Source: Minisyncoccota bacterium
GTDB taxonomy: Bacteria > Patescibacteriota > Minisyncoccia > Phycocordibacterales > UBA1006
NCBI GenBank assembly: GCA_022763365.1
Contig: JALEGN010000007.1
Location: 24,665 to 88,664 of the forward strand
DNA: 64,000 nucleotides
Direction: 5' to 3'
Within the stretch, counting starts at the first letter, position 1. Every line of letters begins with the position of its first letter. The position numbers and the translations under genes are program-made. Positions 2,856 to 28,650 of this stretch are shown here, piece after piece. The notes beneath the pieces were generated by a model. That model did not search any database and was not told where the DNA came from. It saw only the letters and a list, made by a program, of their open reading frames with translations.

Positions 2856-3662
2856 TTACCCCTTTGTTCGTTTAATATTCGCAAACAATTCAGGAAAAGT
2901 TTCATCTAGGAAATGACCTCTGTTTTTGAATCTTATTAATTCTGAATTTTGAAGTTGTTTATGGTAAGACTCTGATTCCTGTAAAGGTACTTCAGGATCA
3001 TCTTCAGAATGGTAAATATAAATTTGCGGAATATTATTTTCACTAAAATTACCCGGGAACTCATTATTTATAAAATCTCCTAAATTATAATCTTCAGAAT
3101 TGTGATTATTTGTAGGCGCAACTAGGTGTAACTGCTTAATAGAAACAGGTAATATATTTATAGAAAGCCATTTCATTAAAAAACCTCCACCCAAAGAATG
3201 TCCAATCAAAATTACATTATCTCTTAAATATGGTATGACTTTTTCGAACCATATACTCCATGCTTGATAATTTGCATAGTCTTTATTTGGCATCTCTGGT
3301 CTTATTATTTCATAATTTTCATTTAAAAAATCTAAATATCTTTTGCTCCAACGATTACTTATTTTAAATGGGTCGTATGACCATGCACCAATCATGTTAA
3401 TATAATTTTCATGGTTGATTGCGGGCATTCCTCCATGAATATGTACAACTTGCTGTTTTTCTTTCATATAAAAATTATAGCAAAAAACCCAAGCCAAAGC
3501 CTGGGCTACTCTTGATAATGGAATTAACCTCACCTCACGGTTCAAGAGTCTATTAACTTTTTTAAAAAGGCTACCACAATTCAATTTACTTAAACCATCA
3601 ACATGAATATGACAGTCTTCAACTAACCAACCAAAAAACTCATATTTATTATACTTTATCAT
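2856..3662 (-). CDS. alpha/beta-hydrolase (serine hydrolase, RBBP9/YdeN-like)
   Basis: 268-aa ORF with the nucleophile-elbow motif GHSLGGG and downstream acid and His positions. Confidence 0.6.
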   Translation of the reverse strand: MIKYNKYEFFGWLVEDCHIHVDGLSKLNCGSLFKKVNRLLNREVRLIPLSRVAQALAWVFCYNFYMKEKQQVVHIHGGMPAINHENYINMIGAWSYDPFKISNRWSKRYLDFLNENYEIIRPEMPNKDYANYQAWSIWFEKVIPYLRDNVILIGHSLGGGFLMKWLSINILPVSIKQLHLVAPTNNHNSEDYNLGDFINNEFPGNFSENNIPQIYIYHSEDDPEVPLQESESYHKQLQNSELIRFKNRGHFLDETFPELFANIKRTKG

Positions 3663-3681: not shown

Positions 3682-4728
3682 TTATTCCTCGTTTTCTAAT
3701 TCGTCTTGTTTTTCACGTATTTTCTTTTGGATACGCTGGAAATCTCCTCCTAAAATTCCTTCGATGTTTGACCATGATTCTTTGATGCGATGATCGGTGA
3801 TACGGTCTTGTGGAAAATTATAGGTTCTAATTTTCTCTGACCTATCCCCTGTTCCAATTTGCTTTTTACGTTTATCAGCGTATCTGGCTTGCTCTTCCTC
3901 GTCTTTCATTTGTTGTAATTTTGATTTTAGAATAGACAGAGCGTTTTCTTTGTTTTTAAGTTGCGTTCGTTGAGCTGTTGAACGCACATCGATACCTGTT
4001 GGTTTGTGAATCACACGCACAGCTGTTTCCACTTTGTTAACACTTTGCCCGCCGGCACCACCTGACCGTGACGTTTCAAATTCTAAATCACTATCATTCA
4101 AAACAATGGTTGTTCGTTTAAATAGTGGCATAATAGCAACTGAAATTGTCGAAGTATGAATACGCCCCTGTTTCTCAGTTGCTGGGATACGCTGTACCCG
4201 ATGTACTCCTGTTTCCCATTGTAATTTGTCATAGACTCCTTCACCTTTGACCTCAAAAGATGCTTCTTTGTAGCCACCAATATCATTTTCTGAGCTGTCG
4301 ATAATACTCCAAGTATATCCTTCTGATTCAGCATAACGTTGGTACATTTCAGCCATTTCTTTCGCAAAGAGTGAGGCTTCGTCTCCTCCAGCTCCAGCTC
4401 TGATTTCTAGAACAATTTCAGAAGGTGATTCTTTATCAGCCTCCTCTTCTTTTTTAATAATATCTTCAGCTTGAGTGATATATGCATTAATTGAAATCGT
4501 TAAATTTTTGATTTCATTTTTGGCTAGTTCTGCCATTTCGGGGTCTTCAGCTAACTCTTGTGTTTCTTCGAGCTTTGCCAAAAATTCTTCAATTTGTGAT
4601 GCAAAAAACTGTGTAGAGTGATTATTTCTATATTTTTCTAAGTCGTACTCTAAAATTTCCATAGATACCATATAGCATAGCAAATATTGTAAAATAAAAA
4701 ACCTTGGTATTTCAAGGCTGTAGTCCAC
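3682..4728 (-). CDS. prfA: peptide chain release factor 1
   Basis: PAT tripeptide ([18 protein letters not shown]) and GGQ motif ([18 protein letters not shown]). The true start may be the internal Met (MEILEY..., about 4662), giving an N-terminus shorter than in E. coli RF1. Confidence 0.85.
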
Positions 4729-5308
4729 AAATTCGGTTGGACTGTAATGATTGTTTTCTTATTCTGTTACTGAGGTTCATTATTAAACGATACACAAATA
4801 ATGCATGGTCTTTAGATTGAATTTTATGAACTTTTGTCAGATGTTGTATTTCACTATTGAGGTTAAAGTCTGGGATAAAACTACCACCCATACAGCGACC
4901 TAAACGCAAGTAATACTGTGATGTCCAAGCATCATTTTTGTATACAATATCAAAAGTGTGAAAACTATATTCATAATTCATGTTAAATAACATGACACGT
5001 ACTCCATTTTCAGTTCTTTCAAAAATAAAAATATTTTTGAAAGAATCAATATATTCACTACACTCTTCTTTATTACTGCAGCTTTGCATATGAGGGTTAT
5101 AGAACATAAGGTTCTGTTTATTACCTAATATTCCCAAAAGCCAGTTCGTTGAGAAACGTAAGGATTGCTGTTGATACAAGGTATCATTTGTTACCTGTTC
5201 AAAGTCAAGATTCTGATATTGATTAACATAACTGTTTTCAAAAACATTATTATTTTGAGCATTTAAAGCACAAAAAAATAGATTAAAAATAAGAAATAAG
5301 TTTTTCAT
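4712..5308 (-). CDS. hypothetical secreted protein
   Basis: Signal peptide [18 protein letters not shown] if the start is the internal Met. No known domain. Confidence 0.4.
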
Positions 5309-5369
5309 GATATTAAGGTTGTTTGTATTTATTAAATCATGGTTAAAAGAAAAAGCCACAATTTAGTGG

Positions 5370-5867
5370 CTATATTTTTTTTATGAAAGTAGTTTTCTTG
5401 GTCTTTTGGTATTGCATAATTTTTTCTGTAAGAATAATGCATTCCCAAATCGATTCTTTTAAAAGAATAAGTTCTTCAAGAGTTCTAATATATTCATATT
5501 GTTCATGGTCAGGGTCTACTTTAACCAATCGCTCTAAACCTTCAACTTCTTGAACCTTAGTGAAATACCTGTCAACCTTCACTTTTCCCTTATCAATTAA
5601 AATATCAGTAGAAACAAATTGATTAATCATCTCACTTGAAGGAACCGAAAAGATAAAATTATCCAAAGATTTTTTTTCATAATTCACTAAAACCTTACGT
5701 TGATATACATCCTCAGCAGAAATATTTAAAAAAGGTTTATCTCCTAAATAAGTGTCTAGGAGTTGAAATCCTAGACGGAGTTCTTGAGCAGCAAGTTCAG
5801 ACGGCACAGGTGTTTGAGCAATAGTCATCAAGGGCACTATGGCAAATAATAGAATAAGTTTTTTCAT
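5370..5867 (-). CDS. hypothetical secreted protein
   Basis: Signal peptide MKKLILLFAIVPLMTIAQ at the internal Met. No known domain. Confidence 0.4.
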   Translation of the reverse strand: MKKLILLFAIVPLMTIAQTPVPSELAAQELRLGFQLLDTYLGDKPFLNISAEDVYQRKVLVNYEKKSLDNFIFSVPSSEMINQFVSTDILIDKGKVKVDRYFTKVQEVEGLERLVKVDPDHEQYEYIRTLEELILLKESIWECIILTEKIMQYQKTKKTTFIKKI

Positions 5868-16926: not shown

Positions 16927-19900
16927 TTACCCAACAACAAGGTTAATAATCTTTCCAGGAACATGAATAAATTTTCTAATACTTTTCCCTTCTATCCATT
17001 TTTGTATTTCAGGCAATGCAATAACACGACCTTGGAGTAATTCATTATCTTCATCTTCTTGAACAACAATCTGTGCTCGAACTTTTCCATTAATTTGAAC
17101 TGGAAGAGCCTTTAGATTTGATGAAATTTTTGATTCATCTGCTATTGGAAAAGATTCTGTATGAATTGATGACTTATTATTTTGCATCCATAGATCCTCA
17201 CACATATGTGGTGCAAATGGAGCAAGAATTTGAATTAATAGGTCATAATCTGACCGGGAAATACTCTCAGATTTTTCAGCCTTGTTAACAAAGGTCATCA
17301 TTGATGAAATAGCTGTATTGAGTTTCAGTCGTTGGATATCTTCACCTACTTTCTTAATTGTTTGATGAAGATCTGACTGTAATTCTTCTGGTGTTATATC
17401 GCTAATCTTTTCCTGTAGTCGCCAAACGCGGTCCAAAAATCGACGGACTCCAACAACACCATTTGGATCCCATGGATAATTCCCTGGTTCGTTAAATGGA
17501 CCAATAAAGGCTAGGTACATTCGGACTGTGTCAGCTCCTACGTGCGCTACTACTTCGTCAGGATCAATCACATTTCCTTTTGATTTCGACATCTTTGCTC
17601 CATCTGGACCAAGGATAAGCCCACGATTTAATCGGCCCTTATAAGGTTCATTATCTGGTACATAGCCGAGTTTATGTAATGCCTTTACCCAAAAACGTGA
17701 ATACAAGAGGTGCATGGTGGTATGTTCTGCCCCACCAAAATACATATTAACCGGCATCCATGAATTTAATGATTCACTAGATGCAAATTGTTCATCATTT
17801 TGATTATCAAGATAACGATAGAAATACCATGATGAATCAACAAAGGTATCCATGGTATCTACCTCAGGAGTCCAACCCACGCCAAATATTTTTTCAGTTC
17901 GTTCTTTTAATTCTTTTGATCGAGCTAAAGGTGCCGTTCCATCAGGAGTAAAATCAACATCATCAGGTAATACCCATGGTAAATGTTCTTTTGGAATTGA
18001 ATGTGCATTTCCTTCTGGATCATACACAATTGGAATTGGGCAACCCCAATATCGTTGACGTGAAATTCCCCAATCACGTAAGCGATAGGTTTTAGCCATT
18101 TCACCTCCCACCATTTCAGTAATTATTCTTCGAGCTTCTTCAGAGTTTTTAGTATTTACCTCTTCGTTTCCATTAATAACCTTTCCTTCAAAAGTACAGC
18201 AAAATCGTTTCCCTTCAGGTAATACTCCACCTTGATCGTGGACTTCAGCTAAGAAATCATACATAGCATTCCATTCTGCATTAATCTCTTCCTGACTACC
18301 CTTTTTCTCAGTAACTCCAGCTGATTGAATAAAAGCATTCTCTCCTGAGGTTATAAGTGGTCTTGAGACCCCAGGTTCACCAGCCGATGGCAGACAAACA
18401 AATTTAAATGGTAAATCATATTTAATAGCAAATTCAGCATCCCGCTCATCATGTGCTGGAACTGCCATAACGGCTCCGGTTCCAAAATGTGCTAATACAT
18501 AATCTGCAATCCATACTGTAATAGGTTTTCCTGTTGCGGGATTAATTGCCTCGATACCCTTCAGCTCTACACCAGTTTTTTCTTTTGACTGTTGCCTGTC
18601 GAGATCTGATTTTTTCTCAACTTCTTTTAAATATGTTTCAACCTCATCCCAATTGTTAACTTGAGATTTTAAATTCTGAACCATGTCGTGCTCTGGAGCG
18701 AGAACAAGGTAGGTCGCACCAAATAAAGTATCTGCTCGAGTGGTAAACACTTTTACATCATCAAATTTTTGTATGTTAGCAGAGACAACTCGCCACGGAT
18801 AGCGCATATCCTCACGTTTTAGGAAGTCATTAACCTCAAGTCGTGGGATCCATAAAAAGTCTGCGATAGCTTGTTCTTCAGGGCTTCGTGCTACTTGTTC
18901 TAGGTCTTTTAGTTTTACATGCACAATTCGATAATTTGCGCGTCTGTTTTGTTGTTTAACAACATGCCAAAATAGTCCGTGTGATGATTGGTCATAAACT
19001 TTTATAATTTCTGGATTCTGATATCCGGTTTCCTCTCGAACTTCAGAGAGTGCTGTTTCTTCAATACTCATACCATCCTCAATTCCTCCGGTTACGAATC
19101 CTTGCCAATCTACCTGTTTCCATCTAGCACATAAGAATTCATCTTTTTCAGGATGCTCAATAATAACGACAACGTTATCTCGATCAACAATTTCTTCGCC
19201 TTCACGAAAGGCATCATCACCTGGACCAGTATTAACATCATAGACCTCTGATTCTTGAATCTTAAACGGAATTAATGAACCTTCTTTACGTCCGATCCAT
19301 TCACGTTGAGCGGCCTTAATTGAATGATCCCAATCTAGGTTTTCTAAATCATCATGGAGTTCATCAGCAAAATCAGTAATCTTGAGCATCCATTGCGCCA
19401 TATCTTTTTGTACTACCTCTGCTCCTGATCGCTCTGATCGCCCATTAATGACTTGTTCATTAGCTAGAATTGTTTTATCAACCGGATCCCAGTTTACCTT
19501 TGTAATATCTTTATAAACTAAGTCATTTTTATAAAACTTGATAAACATCCATTGAGTCCATTTGTAGTATTCAGGATCAGATGTCGCCAGCGTCCGCGAC
19601 CAATCAAAACTTGCCCCCATAGAACGTAATTGATTACGCATATAATCCATATTTTCATAGGTCCATTTTCGTGGATCAAGACCTCGCTTAATAGCTGCAT
19701 TTTCAGCAGGTAAACCAAAAGAATCAAAGCCCATTGGATACAGAACATTATATCCACTCATTCGCTTATACCGAGCGTAAATATCAGGTACTGCAAAAGC
19801 ATACCAATGCCCAACATGCAGGTTACCTGACGGGTAGGCAAATTCTGAAAGAGCATAGAAGTTTTCTTTTCCCTCTACCTTATTTTCTACTTTATAAGTA

Positions 19901-19968
19901 TTATTCTCTTCCCAGTATTGTTGCCATTTTTTCTCGATTTCTTGTGGATTGTATTCGTTTTGATTCAT
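16927..19968 (-). CDS. leuS: leucine--tRNA ligase with an inserted Nudix-like domain
   Basis: HVGH (HIGH) motif, KMSKS (AKMSKSKGN), and CP1 editing-domain motifs VFTTRADTLFGATY and GTGAVMAVPAHDERD. The 1013-aa length includes a ~170-aa insert between WIGRKEG and VFTTR that carries a Nudix-like box GGIEDGMSIEETALSEVREETGY. Confidence 0.9.
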   Translation of the reverse strand: MNQNEYNPQEIEKKWQQYWEENNTYKVENKVEGKENFYALSEFAYPSGNLHVGHWYAFAVPDIYARYKRMSGYNVLYPMGFDSFGLPAENAAIKRGLDPRKWTYENMDYMRNQLRSMGASFDWSRTLATSDPEYYKWTQWMFIKFYKNDLVYKDITKVNWDPVDKTILANEQVINGRSERSGAEVVQKDMAQWMLKITDFADELHDDLENLDWDHSIKAAQREWIGRKEGSLIPFKIQESEVYDVNTGPGDDAFREGEEIVDRDNVVVIIEHPEKDEFLCARWKQVDWQGFVTGGIEDGMSIEETALSEVREETGYQNPEIIKVYDQSSHGLFWHVVKQQNRRANYRIVHVKLKDLEQVARSPEEQAIADFLWIPRLEVNDFLKREDMRYPWRVVSANIQKFDDVKVFTTRADTLFGATYLVLAPEHDMVQNLKSQVNNWDEVETYLKEVEKKSDLDRQQSKEKTGVELKGIEAINPATGKPITVWIADYVLAHFGTGAVMAVPAHDERDAEFAIKYDLPFKFVCLPSAGEPGVSRPLITSGENAFIQSAGVTEKKGSQEEINAEWNAMYDFLAEVHDQGGVLPEGKRFCCTFEGKVINGNEEVNTKNSEEARRIITEMVGGEMAKTYRLRDWGISRQRYWGCPIPIVYDPEGNAHSIPKEHLPWVLPDDVDFTPDGTAPLARSKELKERTEKIFGVGWTPEVDTMDTFVDSSWYFYRYLDNQNDEQFASSESLNSWMPVNMYFGGAEHTTMHLLYSRFWVKALHKLGYVPDNEPYKGRLNRGLILGPDGAKMSKSKGNVIDPDEVVAHVGADTVRMYLAFIGPFNEPGNYPWDPNGVVGVRRFLDRVWRLQEKISDITPEELQSDLHQTIKKVGEDIQRLKLNTAISSMMTFVNKAEKSESISRSDYDLLIQILAPFAPHMCEDLWMQNNKSSIHTESFPIADESKISSNLKALPVQINGKVRAQIVVQEDEDNELLQGRVIALPEIQKWIEGKSIRKFIHVPGKIINLVVG

Positions 19969-20401: not shown

Positions 20402-21766
20402 ATGAATTCACACATTGTGAAAATTGAATCACTTGCCCCTAGTGGTCACGGAATTGCTGAAAATGGTTGGTATATCCTCGGTGCTTTTCCTGAGGATACT
20501 GTAAGAGCTAAGAGATACAAAGAAGCTGAAGAAATTATCTATGCAGAATTGATTGAAATTATTGAGCCATCACCTAATCGAACTTACTCTCCTACCAAAT
20601 CGCCATTTTTTGACCCCAATGCCCCATGGCAATATTTAGATATTGACGCTGAAGATAGATTTAAAAAAAATATAATTCGAAATATTTTTAAGAAATATAA
20701 TATCAATATTAATTCAGAGATTGCTTCGCAAACTCGCAATGACAATAGTCTACTTACAGAGGGTTACCGTAATAAGGCAGCCTATGCTTTTACTTATGAT
20801 AGTGACAATAAGTTATCATTCGCATTATTTACCAGAGGTATTTCACAGCCTGGTAAAATTTCACAGTCTGAAAATATCCTTGTTCACCCAGTCATTAATA
20901 AAATTGGGAAACAATTTCTAGAATTTTTTAATCAAAAAAAGGTTCCTTTGGAAACACTTAAATACCTAACCTTACGTTATTCGTATTATACGAATACTGT
21001 TGTTGCGCAAATTCTTGTAACCGAAAGTAGTCGCAAGAAACTACCTTGGAAAAAATCAGATCTTAAAACATTTATACATCAACATTCTGAAATTCAAGGA
21101 ATAATCGTTTCTCAATCAGAGCCACAGGTGCGTAGCGCAAACATTATCAAAGATTTTTATACTCTTGGAGATATTGAAATAACCGAAGAAATCCTTGGTA
21201 AAAAATATACCTATCACCCATCACAATTTTTTCAAATTTATCCTGATGCATTTGCGCAAATTCTCACTGATTGTGAAAATCTTATTACAAGTATCCCGAA
21301 TCATCATCAATATGAATTACTCGATTTCTTTGCAGGAATTGGGATTATTGGATTGCATATATCTGATTTGGTACAAAGTATTCATGGTGTTGAACAAAGT
21401 GCTCTCGCAAGCAAATACGCACTGATAAATGCACAACAGAACAATATAGAGATCTCCGATCAAGCCGGAGACGCGAGCGACTTTCAATTCACTGAGGCAA
21501 ACGTTGATGAGGCTTTAGAATATATTAAGTCTGATCAAATTCTTATTGTAGATCCAGCTCGAAGTGGATTAACCAAAAAATCACTCGAGAAAATAGTACA
21601 AGTTCAACCAGAATATATTATCTACATCTCATGTAATCCAGAAACTCAGGCTCGAGATTACAAGGTATTACATGATGTTTACGATATTAAATGGTCACGA
21701 GCTTATAACTTATTCCCAAAAACACCACATATTGAGCATGTATTATTTCTCAAAAGAAAAAACTAG
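20402..21766 (+). CDS. 23S rRNA (uracil-C5)-methyltransferase, RlmD/RumA family (cluster-less type)
   Basis: N-terminal TRAM-like domain, SAM-binding LDFFAGIGIIGL, DPARSGL, and the nucleophile motif YISCNPETQARD. The Fe-S ligand cysteines are absent. Confidence 0.8.
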   Translation: MNSHIVKIESLAPSGHGIAENGWYILGAFPEDTVRAKRYKEAEEIIYAELIEIIEPSPNRTYSPTKSPFFDPNAPWQYLDIDAEDRFKKNIIRNIFKKYNININSEIASQTRNDNSLLTEGYRNKAAYAFTYDSDNKLSFALFTRGISQPGKISQSENILVHPVINKIGKQFLEFFNQKKVPLETLKYLTLRYSYYTNTVVAQILVTESSRKKLPWKKSDLKTFIHQHSEIQGIIVSQSEPQVRSANIIKDFYTLGDIEITEEILGKKYTYHPSQFFQIYPDAFAQILTDCENLITSIPNHHQYELLDFFAGIGIIGLHISDLVQSIHGVEQSALASKYALINAQQNNIEISDQAGDASDFQFTEANVDEALEYIKSDQILIVDPARSGLTKKSLEKIVQVQPEYIIYISCNPETQARDYKVLHDVYDIKWSRAYNLFPKTPHIEHVLFLKRKN

Positions 21767-21786
21767 CTTTCTGCTAGTTTTTTTAT
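21757..21786. terminator. intrinsic terminator
   Basis: AAAAACTAGC-TTTCT-GCTAGTTTTTTT. Confidence 0.5.
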
Positions 21787-22551
21787 GAGCCAAGTATCAA
21801 TAATATTTTTTAATTCCTCTAATTGTTCAGGTTCACGAGGTGTATGACTAGAATCAGATAACATTTTAATTTCTTTGTCTTGCGATAGAGCATCATAAAA
21901 AATTTTAATGTGTTCATGCTGGCATGAATGATCAAATTCACATGTAATAAGAAGCATAGGTGGATTAATATTATTTTCTTTAAGAAGAGAATGATTTAAC
22001 ATTTCAGTCATTACCTGCCAAGGTTCTTTTCTTATCCTTCCTGGTACAGATTTTGATTCTCTAATTTGAATACCATCTTTTTCCCATTTGCTAAAAAGAT
22101 CAGGATAAAACTTTCTTTTAGTAGCGTATGATAATTCGCCTGAAACAACTGGAGCAAATGGAATAGCAAAATTAACCTTCTCTAGATTACGAAGTGCATA
22201 TCGAGCAGACGCAAAACCACCCATAGAATGACCTGAAACGAGTAATTTTCCAGTAAACCATTCTTGTTCCTGAACCCAATTAGCCACATCTTCAAAGTCA
22301 TCTGTGTGCAAACCAAGACGTGCGTCTTCATATTTACCTTCTGACTCACCAAAAGAATGAGGAGCATCAAAATTAAATACCTGAAATTGATTTTGCAGCA
22401 AAGCATCTTGTATCACTTGGATATGAGGATTTTCTTTAGCGCCACCATATCCATGCTGAAGCACTGCTGTTCCAATAATGTTATCTTCAGGTTTTAGTAA
22501 TATTCCAATGATATTTTGATCTCTTCTATTTTGTAATGTTAGTTTTTGCAT
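21763..22551 (-). CDS. alpha/beta-hydrolase
   Basis: GHSMGG nucleophile elbow and an HGYGG oxyanion-region motif. Confidence 0.6.
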   Translation of the reverse strand: MQKLTLQNRRDQNIIGILLKPEDNIIGTAVLQHGYGGAKENPHIQVIQDALLQNQFQVFNFDAPHSFGESEGKYEDARLGLHTDDFEDVANWVQEQEWFTGKLLVSGHSMGGFASARYALRNLEKVNFAIPFAPVVSGELSYATKRKFYPDLFSKWEKDGIQIRESKSVPGRIRKEPWQVMTEMLNHSLLKENNINPPMLLITCEFDHSCQHEHIKIFYDALSQDKEIKMLSDSSHTPREPEQLEELKNIIDTWLIKKLAES

Positions 22552-28481: not shown

Positions 28482-28563
28482 GCTGGAGTGGCGGAATTGG
28501 TAGACGCGTGCGACTCAAAATCGCATATCTACGGGTGTGCGGGTTCGATTCCCGCCTCCAGCA
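28482..28563 (+). tRNA. tRNA-Leu (anticodon CAA), type II
   Basis: Acceptor GCTGGAG/CTCCAGC, anticodon stem TGCGA/TCGCA with loop CTCAAAA (CAA), long variable arm, T arm GCGGG-TTCGATT-CCCGC, discriminator A. Confidence 0.85.
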
Positions 28564-28650
28564 CTTTGTTTTTAAAACTAAAATCGCACTACAAGAGTAT
28601 TTCCATTTTATATTCGCAGAAGCTCATTAAAAATTAGGTCACAGCTCTTC

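Follow-up and report, generated by a model that had tools for sequence, protein, structure and literature searches.

The 64,000-nucleotide stretch of DNA analysed here (the window) comes from an uncultured Paceibacteria bacterium of the Patescibacteria, or Candidate Phyla Radiation (CPR), and its minus strand encodes leuS, a leucyl-tRNA synthetase (LeuRS) of the bacterial type, whose CP1 editing domain hosts an additional module. Our favoured reading, which we consider probable, is that this module is a Nudix pyrophosphohydrolase seated in the CP1 hairpin, active but dispensable, and tethered to a LeuRS that is otherwise normal. The features that define the host gene and its insert are the following:

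16927..19968, minus strand: leuS, bacterial-type leucyl-tRNA synthetase, host of the insert (open reading frame, ORF, of 1013 aa).
18754..19260, minus strand: inserted module, aa 237-405, in frame, composed of the Nudix domain with an N-terminal extension and a C-terminal helix.
18814..19182, minus strand: match to Pfam NUDIX (PF00293), aa 263-385 (40.4 bits, E 3.7e-10).
19021..19089, minus strand: variant Nudix box GGIEDGMSIEETALSEVREETGY, aa 294-316 (by position match).
19252..19287, minus strand: strand 1 of the CP1 hairpin, N-terminal to the insert, aa 228-239, EGSLIPFKIQESE (strand E228-239 of the structural model).
18727..18756, minus strand: strand 2 of the CP1 hairpin with the threonine-rich editing motif VKVFTTRADT, aa 405-414 (strand E405-409 of the model, and alignment).

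Regarding the extent of the insert, LeuRS has about 167 additional residues (aa ~238-404) between strands 1 and 2 of the CP1 editing domain, at a position occupied in insert-less relatives by a loop of ~10 residues. A preliminary description, made from the sequence alone, had noticed the unusual spacing of two motifs, WIGRKEG (aa 224-230) and VFTTRADT (aa 407-414), and the comparison bore this out: among the 120 best LeuRS relatives, 40-odd are insert-less and have 22-27 residues between the W of W(IGR) and the T of T(TRxDT), against 185 in the window. The sequence strings quoted at that stage are all present on the minus strand, in the frame of the 1013-aa ORF, and the coordinates 18754..19260 correspond exactly, in frame, to aa 237-405. 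TTRADT begins at aa 409, and the TTRxDT motif is retained in nearly all relatives, whether the insert is present or not.

As for the insertion point, the module had been placed just before CP1, and this has to be amended. The LeuRS of Thermus thermophilus aligns to host strand 1 as far as its residue 241, and the alignment is interrupted between residues 241 and 243, which is five positions ahead of the threonine-rich motif; moreover, the Pfam model of the LeuRS editing domain picks up again at profile position 18 downstream of the insert. Both results therefore put the module inside CP1 rather than before it and, judging from these alignments, the site is the tip of the first beta-hairpin.

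The identity of the insert was addressed with profile hidden Markov models (HMM) and with structure prediction. PF00293 scored 40.4 bits when the whole protein was scanned and 44.7 bits when only the excised insert was, with a gathering cut-off of 21.1. The AlphaFold2 (AF2) model of the insert alone, computed with an alignment of 13 free-standing homologs, had a predicted local distance difference test (pLDDT) of 92.2 and a predicted template modelling score (pTM) of 0.87; within the full-length model, the Nudix region had a pLDDT of 85-96 and was bounded by the host strands 228-239 and 405-409. A Foldseek comparison of the insert with the PDB returned 487 hits at E ≤ 0.001, and all 50 among the matches listed had the Nudix fold; the top ones were 2azw (MutT/Nudix), NudI (6dt3), the Ap4A (diadenosine tetraphosphate) hydrolases CT771 (4mpo) and Aq_158 (3i7u), and RppH, with a probability of 1.0, a template modelling (TM) score of ~0.65 (0.6-0.66) and an identity of 14-23%. 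By HMM and by predicted fold, then, the guest belongs to the Nudix superfamily, with a variant box, and the models show it as a complete Nudix domain predicted to fold independently. The suggestion of a Nudix-like insert in LeuRS was thus borne out by the Pfam match, the confident structure prediction and the Foldseek matches; the HMM search and the structure prediction that had been proposed as checks both came out positive, a Nudix match being found and the segment not being a linker of unrelated fold.

The host itself retains what a LeuRS of this type is expected to have. In the window protein, NCBIfam model TIGR00396 (leuS_bact) scored 873.8 bits, above its equivalog cut-off of 548.4, and the Pfam scan recognized tRNA-synt_1, the editing domain PF13603 (159.8 bits) and Anticodon_1. 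The full-length AF2 model had a pLDDT of 88.5 and a pTM of 0.77, and it superposed on Escherichia coli LeuRS (4aq7) with a TMt of 0.85 and a root mean square deviation of 3.5 Å. The signatures of the synthetic and editing sites were located as follows:

19807..19818, minus strand: HVGH (HIGH) signature of the synthetic site, aa 51-54 (motif match).
17581..17595, minus strand: KMSKS signature of the synthetic site, aa 792-796 (motif match).
18439..18453, minus strand: HDERD motif of the editing site with the conserved Asp, aa 506-510 (motif match).

With its synthetic (HIGH, KMSKS) and editing (TTRxDT, HDxRD) motifs and its predicted overall fold kept, the host is shown by sequence and model to be an otherwise normal LeuRS. 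Compared with the bacterial-type enzymes of T. thermophilus (1H3N/2BYT) and E. coli (4AQ7/4ARC), it has the same catalytic and editing signatures, domain order and predicted fold; compared with the T. thermophilus protein, it adds the ~167-residue Nudix module and ~50 helical residues, and it is without the leucine-specific domain.

The Nudix box of the insert reads G294-x5-M300-x7-S308-E309-V-R-E312-E313-T-G315-Y316, and it departs from the full 23-residue consensus GX5EX7REUXEEXGU at two positions, with M300 in place of the first Glu and S308 in place of the Arg; the remaining seven specified positions match. The preliminary description had rightly read the Glu-Glu pair as kept and the Arg as replaced by Ser, but it had overlooked the loss of the first Glu of GX5E. 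In a family alignment of 217 Nudix domains, taken from three LeuRS sites (A, B and C, defined below), from prolyl-tRNA synthetase (ProRS) and from free-standing proteins, the metal-binding glutamates are conserved in 99% (E309), 96% (E312) and 100% (E313) of the sequences, the two glycines G294 and G315 in 99% each, and R263, K338, N341, R342, E365 and W373 in 89-100%. Among the site-A copies, to which the window's insert belongs, E309, E312 and E313 occur in 39/39, 38/39 and 39/39, respectively. The copies at site B mostly have the full box, with the canonical Glu in 92/115 and the canonical Arg in 98/115, and the site-A clade of the window is relaxed only at positions 300 (M/Q/K/D/E) and 308 (S/A/T/E/D/R). 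Such a pattern fits a working metal site that is without the usual structural Glu-Arg pair, and not a decaying domain.

Beyond the box, residues +17 and +18 of the insert are F333 and W334, and position +18 across the family is Tyr in 103/217, Phe in 83/217 and Trp in 19/217 of the domains. A Tyr located ~16-18 residues after the Nudix box, in the so-called X-loop, is associated with hydrolases of diadenosine polyphosphates (ApnA) (PMC5389931, summarising Dunn et al. 1999). The comparison with small single-domain Nudix hydrolases, namely the Ap4A hydrolases Aq_158 (3I7U) and CT771 (4MPO), NudI (6DT3) and RppH (4S2X), shows the same fold, a conserved EUxEE helix and, in common with the window insert, an aromatic X-loop residue ~17-18 positions after the box. 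Unlike them, the window module is embedded in a synthetase, its box is without the first Glu and the Arg, its identity to them is 14-23%, and its family has motifs of its own, W-K-x3-W and K-x2-N-R.

The distribution of the family was followed with several searches. The insert alone retrieved, besides a single fragment of a LeuRS, 13 free-standing Nudix proteins of ~170 aa, which by BLAST were 45-52% identical to it (37% for one distant member). The free-standing Nudix proteins of Patescibacteria metagenome-assembled genomes (MAGs; P0002-P0013) are 42-50% identical to the insert over ~90% of its length, have the same N-terminal extension, C-terminal helix and family motifs as the insert and are independent genes; one free-standing homolog was annotated by the Joint Genome Institute as '8-oxo-dGTP pyrophosphatase MutT (NUDIX family)'. 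Their neighbourhoods consist of miscellaneous small genes, with no leuS nearby. The exception is locus L078, where a free-standing copy (2932-3444) stands ~290 nt upstream of, and on the same strand as, a class I synthetase gene (3738-5861), of the Ile/Val type by Pfam.

Searching with the whole LeuRS gave a different view of the same family: of the relatives of at least 700 aa (n = 119), 72 carry at least one Nudix domain, 25 at site A, 51 at site B (the CP1 loop after HDxRD) and 4 at both. A profile of the family, run against 1.84 billion cluster representatives, produced 294 matches at E ≤ 1e-10; the best 150 of these 294 comprised 95 LeuRS or LeuRS fragments, ~5 fragments of LeuRS editing domains, 42 short proteins and at least one ProRS (P0240). 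A third LeuRS insertion site, site C, corresponds to reference positions ~469-484. In the GTDB contigs, with one genome per species, 70 of the best 80 family loci lie inside LeuRS and 8 are free-standing; their labels include Nomura-, Kaiser-, Taylor-, Vogel-, Adler-, Moran-, Komeili-, Buchanan- and Gracilibacteria, together with a few Woesearchaeota. As for ProRS, five clusters of the archaeal type (P0240, P0285-P0288) have the family between the anticodon-binding and C-terminal domains, as does the fragment P0183, and the insert-less relatives of these proteins are labelled Nanoarchaeota or Woesearchaeota. These counts show a family that is repeatedly and overwhelmingly associated with synthetases, the free-standing copies being its minority state. 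The survey of related genomes thus found the architecture to be common among the LeuRS of Patescibacteria MAGs; the earlier remark that it is not a standard one holds for textbook bacteria, but not for Patescibacteria, of which it is typical and where it is seen in precomputed Pfam annotations.

Some LeuRS carry more than one copy. Tandem Nudix domains occur at site A, the second copy being sometimes of a different, Nudt16-like subfamily, and other LeuRS have up to three copies across sites A and B, in proteins of 1150-1570 aa (examples of multi-Nudix LeuRS are P0017, P0020, P0023, P0024, P0069, P0135, P0136, L048 and L062). In one GTDB genome (L042:686-4431), a LeuRS with two Nudix domains appears to be split over three overlapping or adjacent ORFs; a frameshift, a pseudogene and an error of assembly are all conceivable.

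In the clade of the window, the module has a long common history with its host. Across 17 insert-bearing LeuRS, the identity of the insert follows that of the core (r = 0.92). The insert is 79-90% identical to those of its relatives, and the C-terminal LeuRS core 68-82%. Compared with two insert-bearing relatives, it has 0.08-0.12 nonsynonymous (pN) and 0.75-0.79 synonymous (pS) differences per site, with synonymous sites saturated as in the flanks; the GC content at third codon positions (GC3) of the insert is 0.247, and that of the remaining gene 0.252. These substitution patterns show that purifying selection on the insert is strong, and no weaker than on the LeuRS core. Since insert and core diverged together, pS is saturated and GC3 is host-like, the module is old and was vertically co-inherited with its host in this clade; a recent horizontal transfer was considered for this clade and rejected on the saturated synonymous sites and the flank-like composition.

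Within the wider group, the picture is one of repeated gain and loss. In a neighbour-joining tree built from LeuRS cores, alleles with and without the insert are intermixed, and some pairs have nearly identical cores: 97.5% for P0020 (tandem Nudix) and P0030 (insert-less), 95.5% for P0023 (insert) and P0041 (insert-less), and 95.2% for P0053 (Ham1 domain) and P0054 (insert-less). The loop of the insert-less P0030 reads …PFTLSNNEIVQVFTT…, and its locus is syntenic with the window, with genes for an alpha/beta hydrolase and a TrmA-like methyltransferase followed by leuS. The Nudix domain is not the only guest at site A, where close relatives carry Ser_hydrolase (PF06821), Ham1-like (PF01725), ASCH (PF04266), DUF559/restriction endonuclease (PF04480) or HAD (PF13419) domains; two further domains in the CP1 loops match no family, and one of them occurs both at site A (P0074) and at site B (P0106). 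Carriers of these other domains are P0038, P0044, P0051, P0053, P0055, P0074, P0084, P0089, P0091, P0111, P0116, P0117, P0121 and P0122 at site A, and P0101 and P0106 at site B. Replacement occurs as well: P0066 and P0084 have cores that are 92.4% identical and site-B Nudix modules that are only 32% identical, and the site-B module of P0066 is 63% identical to the site-A module of the window, which looks like the replacement of one cassette by another moved between sites or genes. From these comparisons, the CP1 loops behave as hot spots for the loss, gain and replacement of whole domains; homologous recombination between their conserved flanks is the presumed mechanism.

Regarding the function, the retention of the E-x2-EE glutamates and of R263, K338, N341, R342, E365 and W373 suggests that the module is a catalytically competent, metal-dependent hydrolase, and the existence of near-identical LeuRS alleles that do not have it suggests that it is an accessory unnecessary for aminoacylation. 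It may act as a third active site tethered to the synthetase or, failing that, as a protein partner expressed together with it. Because members of the family occupy three LeuRS sites, occur within ProRS and, in one case, directly precede a class I synthetase gene, the property under selection seems to be the physical or expression linkage to an aminoacyl-tRNA synthetase, and not one exact geometry.

As for the substrate, synthetases make Ap4A from the aminoacyl-adenylate and ATP, and Nudix enzymes are major Ap4A hydrolases. The preferred candidate is accordingly a nucleoside diphosphate linked to another moiety (NDP-X) with adenine as the base, of the Ap4A/ApnA type, arising as a by-product of synthetase chemistry; this choice, made because synthetases produce ApnA, because hosts of both class I and class II occur and because of the aromatic +17/+18 pair, is tentative and well short of an even chance. 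The next candidate is a pyrophosphate or cap at the 5' end of RNA (tRNA). Leucyl-adenylate (Leu-AMP), in contrast, is a mixed anhydride and not an NDP-X compound, and its hydrolysis belongs to the chemistry of the HIT family and not of Nudix enzymes, so that it is an unlikely substrate.

Several results weigh against an active module engaged in synthetase chemistry. None of the characterised Nudix subfamily models of NCBIfam was reached by the insert: its best match was the RppH model NF001936, with 28.7 bits against a cut-off of 118, and no Ap4A hydrolase model of NCBIfam was matched. The best sequence matches in the PDB had an E of only ~5e-5 and were a mixture of NUDT12, Dcp2, RppH, an Ap4A hydrolase and ADP-sugar pyrophosphatases, with AvrM14 also among the weak ones; for the Ap4A hydrolases 3i7u and 1f3y, E was only 0.002-0.006. 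These matches, like the fold neighbours, are too distant and too mixed to point to one substrate. In addition, the loss of the first Glu and of the Arg of the Nudix box in this clade could mean that activity is reduced or altered, and the presence of unrelated hydrolases in the same loop, together with the frequent loss of the insert, would fit a permissive loop carrying passenger enzymes.

This last possibility is the main rival. The CP1 loop would merely be a permissive place in an essential and constitutive protein, on which, in these very small genomes, autonomous house-cleaning hydrolases of modest size (Nudix, Ham1/ITPase, HAD, serine hydrolase) ride as in-frame cassettes, and the Nudix domain would clean the nucleotide pool without being mechanistically connected with LeuRS or tRNA. 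Speaking for it are the domains of at least five unrelated families, and two family-less ones, at site A of close relatives, as do the presence, absence and swaps between near-identical LeuRS (P0053/P0054; P0066/P0084) and the free-standing homologs found amid miscellaneous small genes. Permissiveness alone, however, does not predict the bias toward these hosts: the family is overwhelmingly inside LeuRS (70/80 loci), at three independent sites and with up to three copies per protein, and it recurs in ProRS, an unrelated synthetase of class II. The passenger explanation is for these reasons considered rather unlikely, though it keeps an appreciable share of the probability. An enzyme like RppH, NudC or Dcp2, acting at the 5' end of the synthetase-bound tRNA (a 5'-triphosphate, or an NAD or Np4N cap) or on another modified terminus, would account for the weak best matches being rich in RNA 5'-end Nudix enzymes (RppH in NCBIfam; NUDT12, Dcp2, AvrM14 and RppH in the PDB), for RppH being among the fold neighbours, for the second Nudix of the relatives' tandem inserts matching a Nudt16-like family, and for a module that sits on CP1, the domain that handles the tRNA acceptor, and is found also in ProRS. 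The same matches, though, fall far under the family cut-offs, the fold neighbours include Ap4A and NTP hydrolases equally, and it is left unexplained why tRNA-Leu or tRNA-Pro alone would need such processing; this role in RNA-end processing is thus improbable.

Somewhat more improbable still is a catalytically inactive Nudix fold, structural or ligand-sensing, that would modulate LeuRS or serve in protein contacts. Nudix domains without enzymatic activity are known (PMC5389931), and two of the nine specified positions of the box are gone in the clade (M300, S308); yet the embedded copies hardly vary at the three metal-binding glutamates and at six further residues, the ancestral or site-B copies keep the full canonical box, and the whole Nudix domain is under strong purifying selection. 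The idea of a degenerate insert, one of the options raised in the preliminary description, is disfavoured by this selection and by the invariance of the catalytic glutamates. The remaining alternative, a selfish mobile insertion (an intein-like or homing element) or an assembly artefact, is suggested by the patchy presence among close relatives and by the DUF559 domains, with an endonuclease fold, that occupy the same site in some of them, but it is essentially refuted: no intein or Hint family was matched, no direct or inverted repeats flank the insert, its composition is host-like, its synonymous divergence is saturated as in the flanks, it co-diverged with the core (r = 0.92), and the same architecture turned up in dozens of assemblies that are independent of one another. 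In the search for flanking direct or inverted repeats and target-site duplications, only short chance matches were seen around the insert, and no homing endonuclease was found in it by the Pfam scan. An intein or intron was likewise rejected, considering the absence of Hint and intein families in the Pfam scan, the continuous reading frame and the folded domain. The PADLOC scan for defence systems gave nothing for the insert, and only a marginal PDC-S07 match for a free-standing homolog.

The reading of an active but dispensable Nudix module can be taken a step further, into territory that we regard as doubtful: the embedded Nudix would be a genuine third catalytic site acting in cis, and the CP1 loops an exchangeable 'tool rack' of enzymes for the repair of tRNA or nucleotides. 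The Nudix domain might then destroy adenylate-derived dinucleotides at their source or, alternatively, repair or uncap the tRNA terminus (a 5'-triphosphate, an NAD or Np4N cap, or a 3'-pyrophosphate installed by a toxin), and the other hydrolase cassettes in the CP1 loops of ultra-small symbiotic bacteria and archaea would obey the same logic. If so, a previously unrecognised layer of quality control or defence linked to synthetases would come to light.

The Nudix-in-LeuRS build is real and widespread in one radiation, and it seems to be undescribed. A full-text literature search combining LeuRS or aminoacyl-tRNA synthetases (aaRS), Nudix, and CPR, Patescibacteria or Parcubacteria found no Nudix domain described in LeuRS or in any synthetase, and there is no mention of one in the review of the Nudix clan (PMC5389931), in AARS Online (PMC11580382) or in a 2026 survey of domain insertions (PMC13114784). 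Parts of the matter were already public, since the Pfam architecture of the MAG proteins is precomputed and extra enzyme domains on synthetases are known; for instance, NCBIfam NF040702, 'isoleucine--tRNA ligase, N-acetyltransferase domain-containing', is also, as compared by its model name, a class I synthetase with an extra catalytic domain, and it differs from the window LeuRS in both host and guest fold. The window protein is identical to a public MAG protein (P0015), and its Nudix domain is invisible in the NCBI name 'class I tRNA ligase family protein [Candidatus Pacebacteria bacterium]', which makes this an annotation issue as well.

The relationship between aaRS, Ap4A and Nudix enzymes of the NUDT2/RppH type is the closest functional parallel to be drawn, in that the fusion would unite the producer of Ap4A with its consumer; to our knowledge, the activities that make and hydrolyse Ap4A reside on separate proteins in the known systems. 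When a synthetase has an additional domain, this is usually the sign of an additional role, for instance in editing, in signalling or in the formation of complexes. In the present case, the LeuRS editing domain of much of the Patescibacteria contains a hydrolase of a second kind, which recurs in ProRS of DPANN-like archaea. If the Nudix domain is coupled to synthetase chemistry, it would represent either a natural producer-consumer fusion (Ap4A/adenylate) or a new step of tRNA-end processing, and it would offer an experimental handle on what these unculturable, nucleotide-scavenging organisms must clean up. Even if it is a passenger, enzyme domains borne by loops would be an unusual way to carry accessory functions, relevant to the engineering of proteins at permissive sites.

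Two further differences concern the host. At 18223..18372 (minus strand, aa ~533-582), the CP1 loop after HDERD, that is site B, has a clade-specific extra segment of ~50 aa; nothing corresponds to it between residues 368 and 369 of T. thermophilus LeuRS, it is predicted to be helical in the full-length model (H545-549 and H559-577), and the Pfam scan of this segment matched no family. In many other Paceibacteria LeuRS, the same loop holds a Nudix domain. As for the leucine-specific domain (T. thermophilus residues 580-636), it has no counterpart in the window LeuRS: the alignment skips from aa 788 to aa 791 of the query, at aa 787-791 (window ~17596..17610, minus strand).

With respect to the genomic surroundings, four tRNA genes (Ile, Gln, Trp and Tyr) are found in the window in addition to that for tRNA-Leu(CAA), and the Rfam scan of the window returned nothing above threshold besides the tRNA genes. 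Three of the surrounding genes are the following:

20402..21766, plus strand: TrmA-like tRNA (U5) methyltransferase gene, upstream of leuS.
21763..22551, minus strand: alpha/beta hydrolase gene (262 aa), upstream of leuS.
28482..28564, plus strand: tRNA-Leu(CAA) gene, ~8.5 kb from leuS.

The TrmA-like and alpha/beta hydrolase genes are convergent and overlap by 4 nt, and the arrangement of the three genes (alpha/beta hydrolase, TrmA-like and leuS) is kept around the insert-less leuS of a relative (L005).

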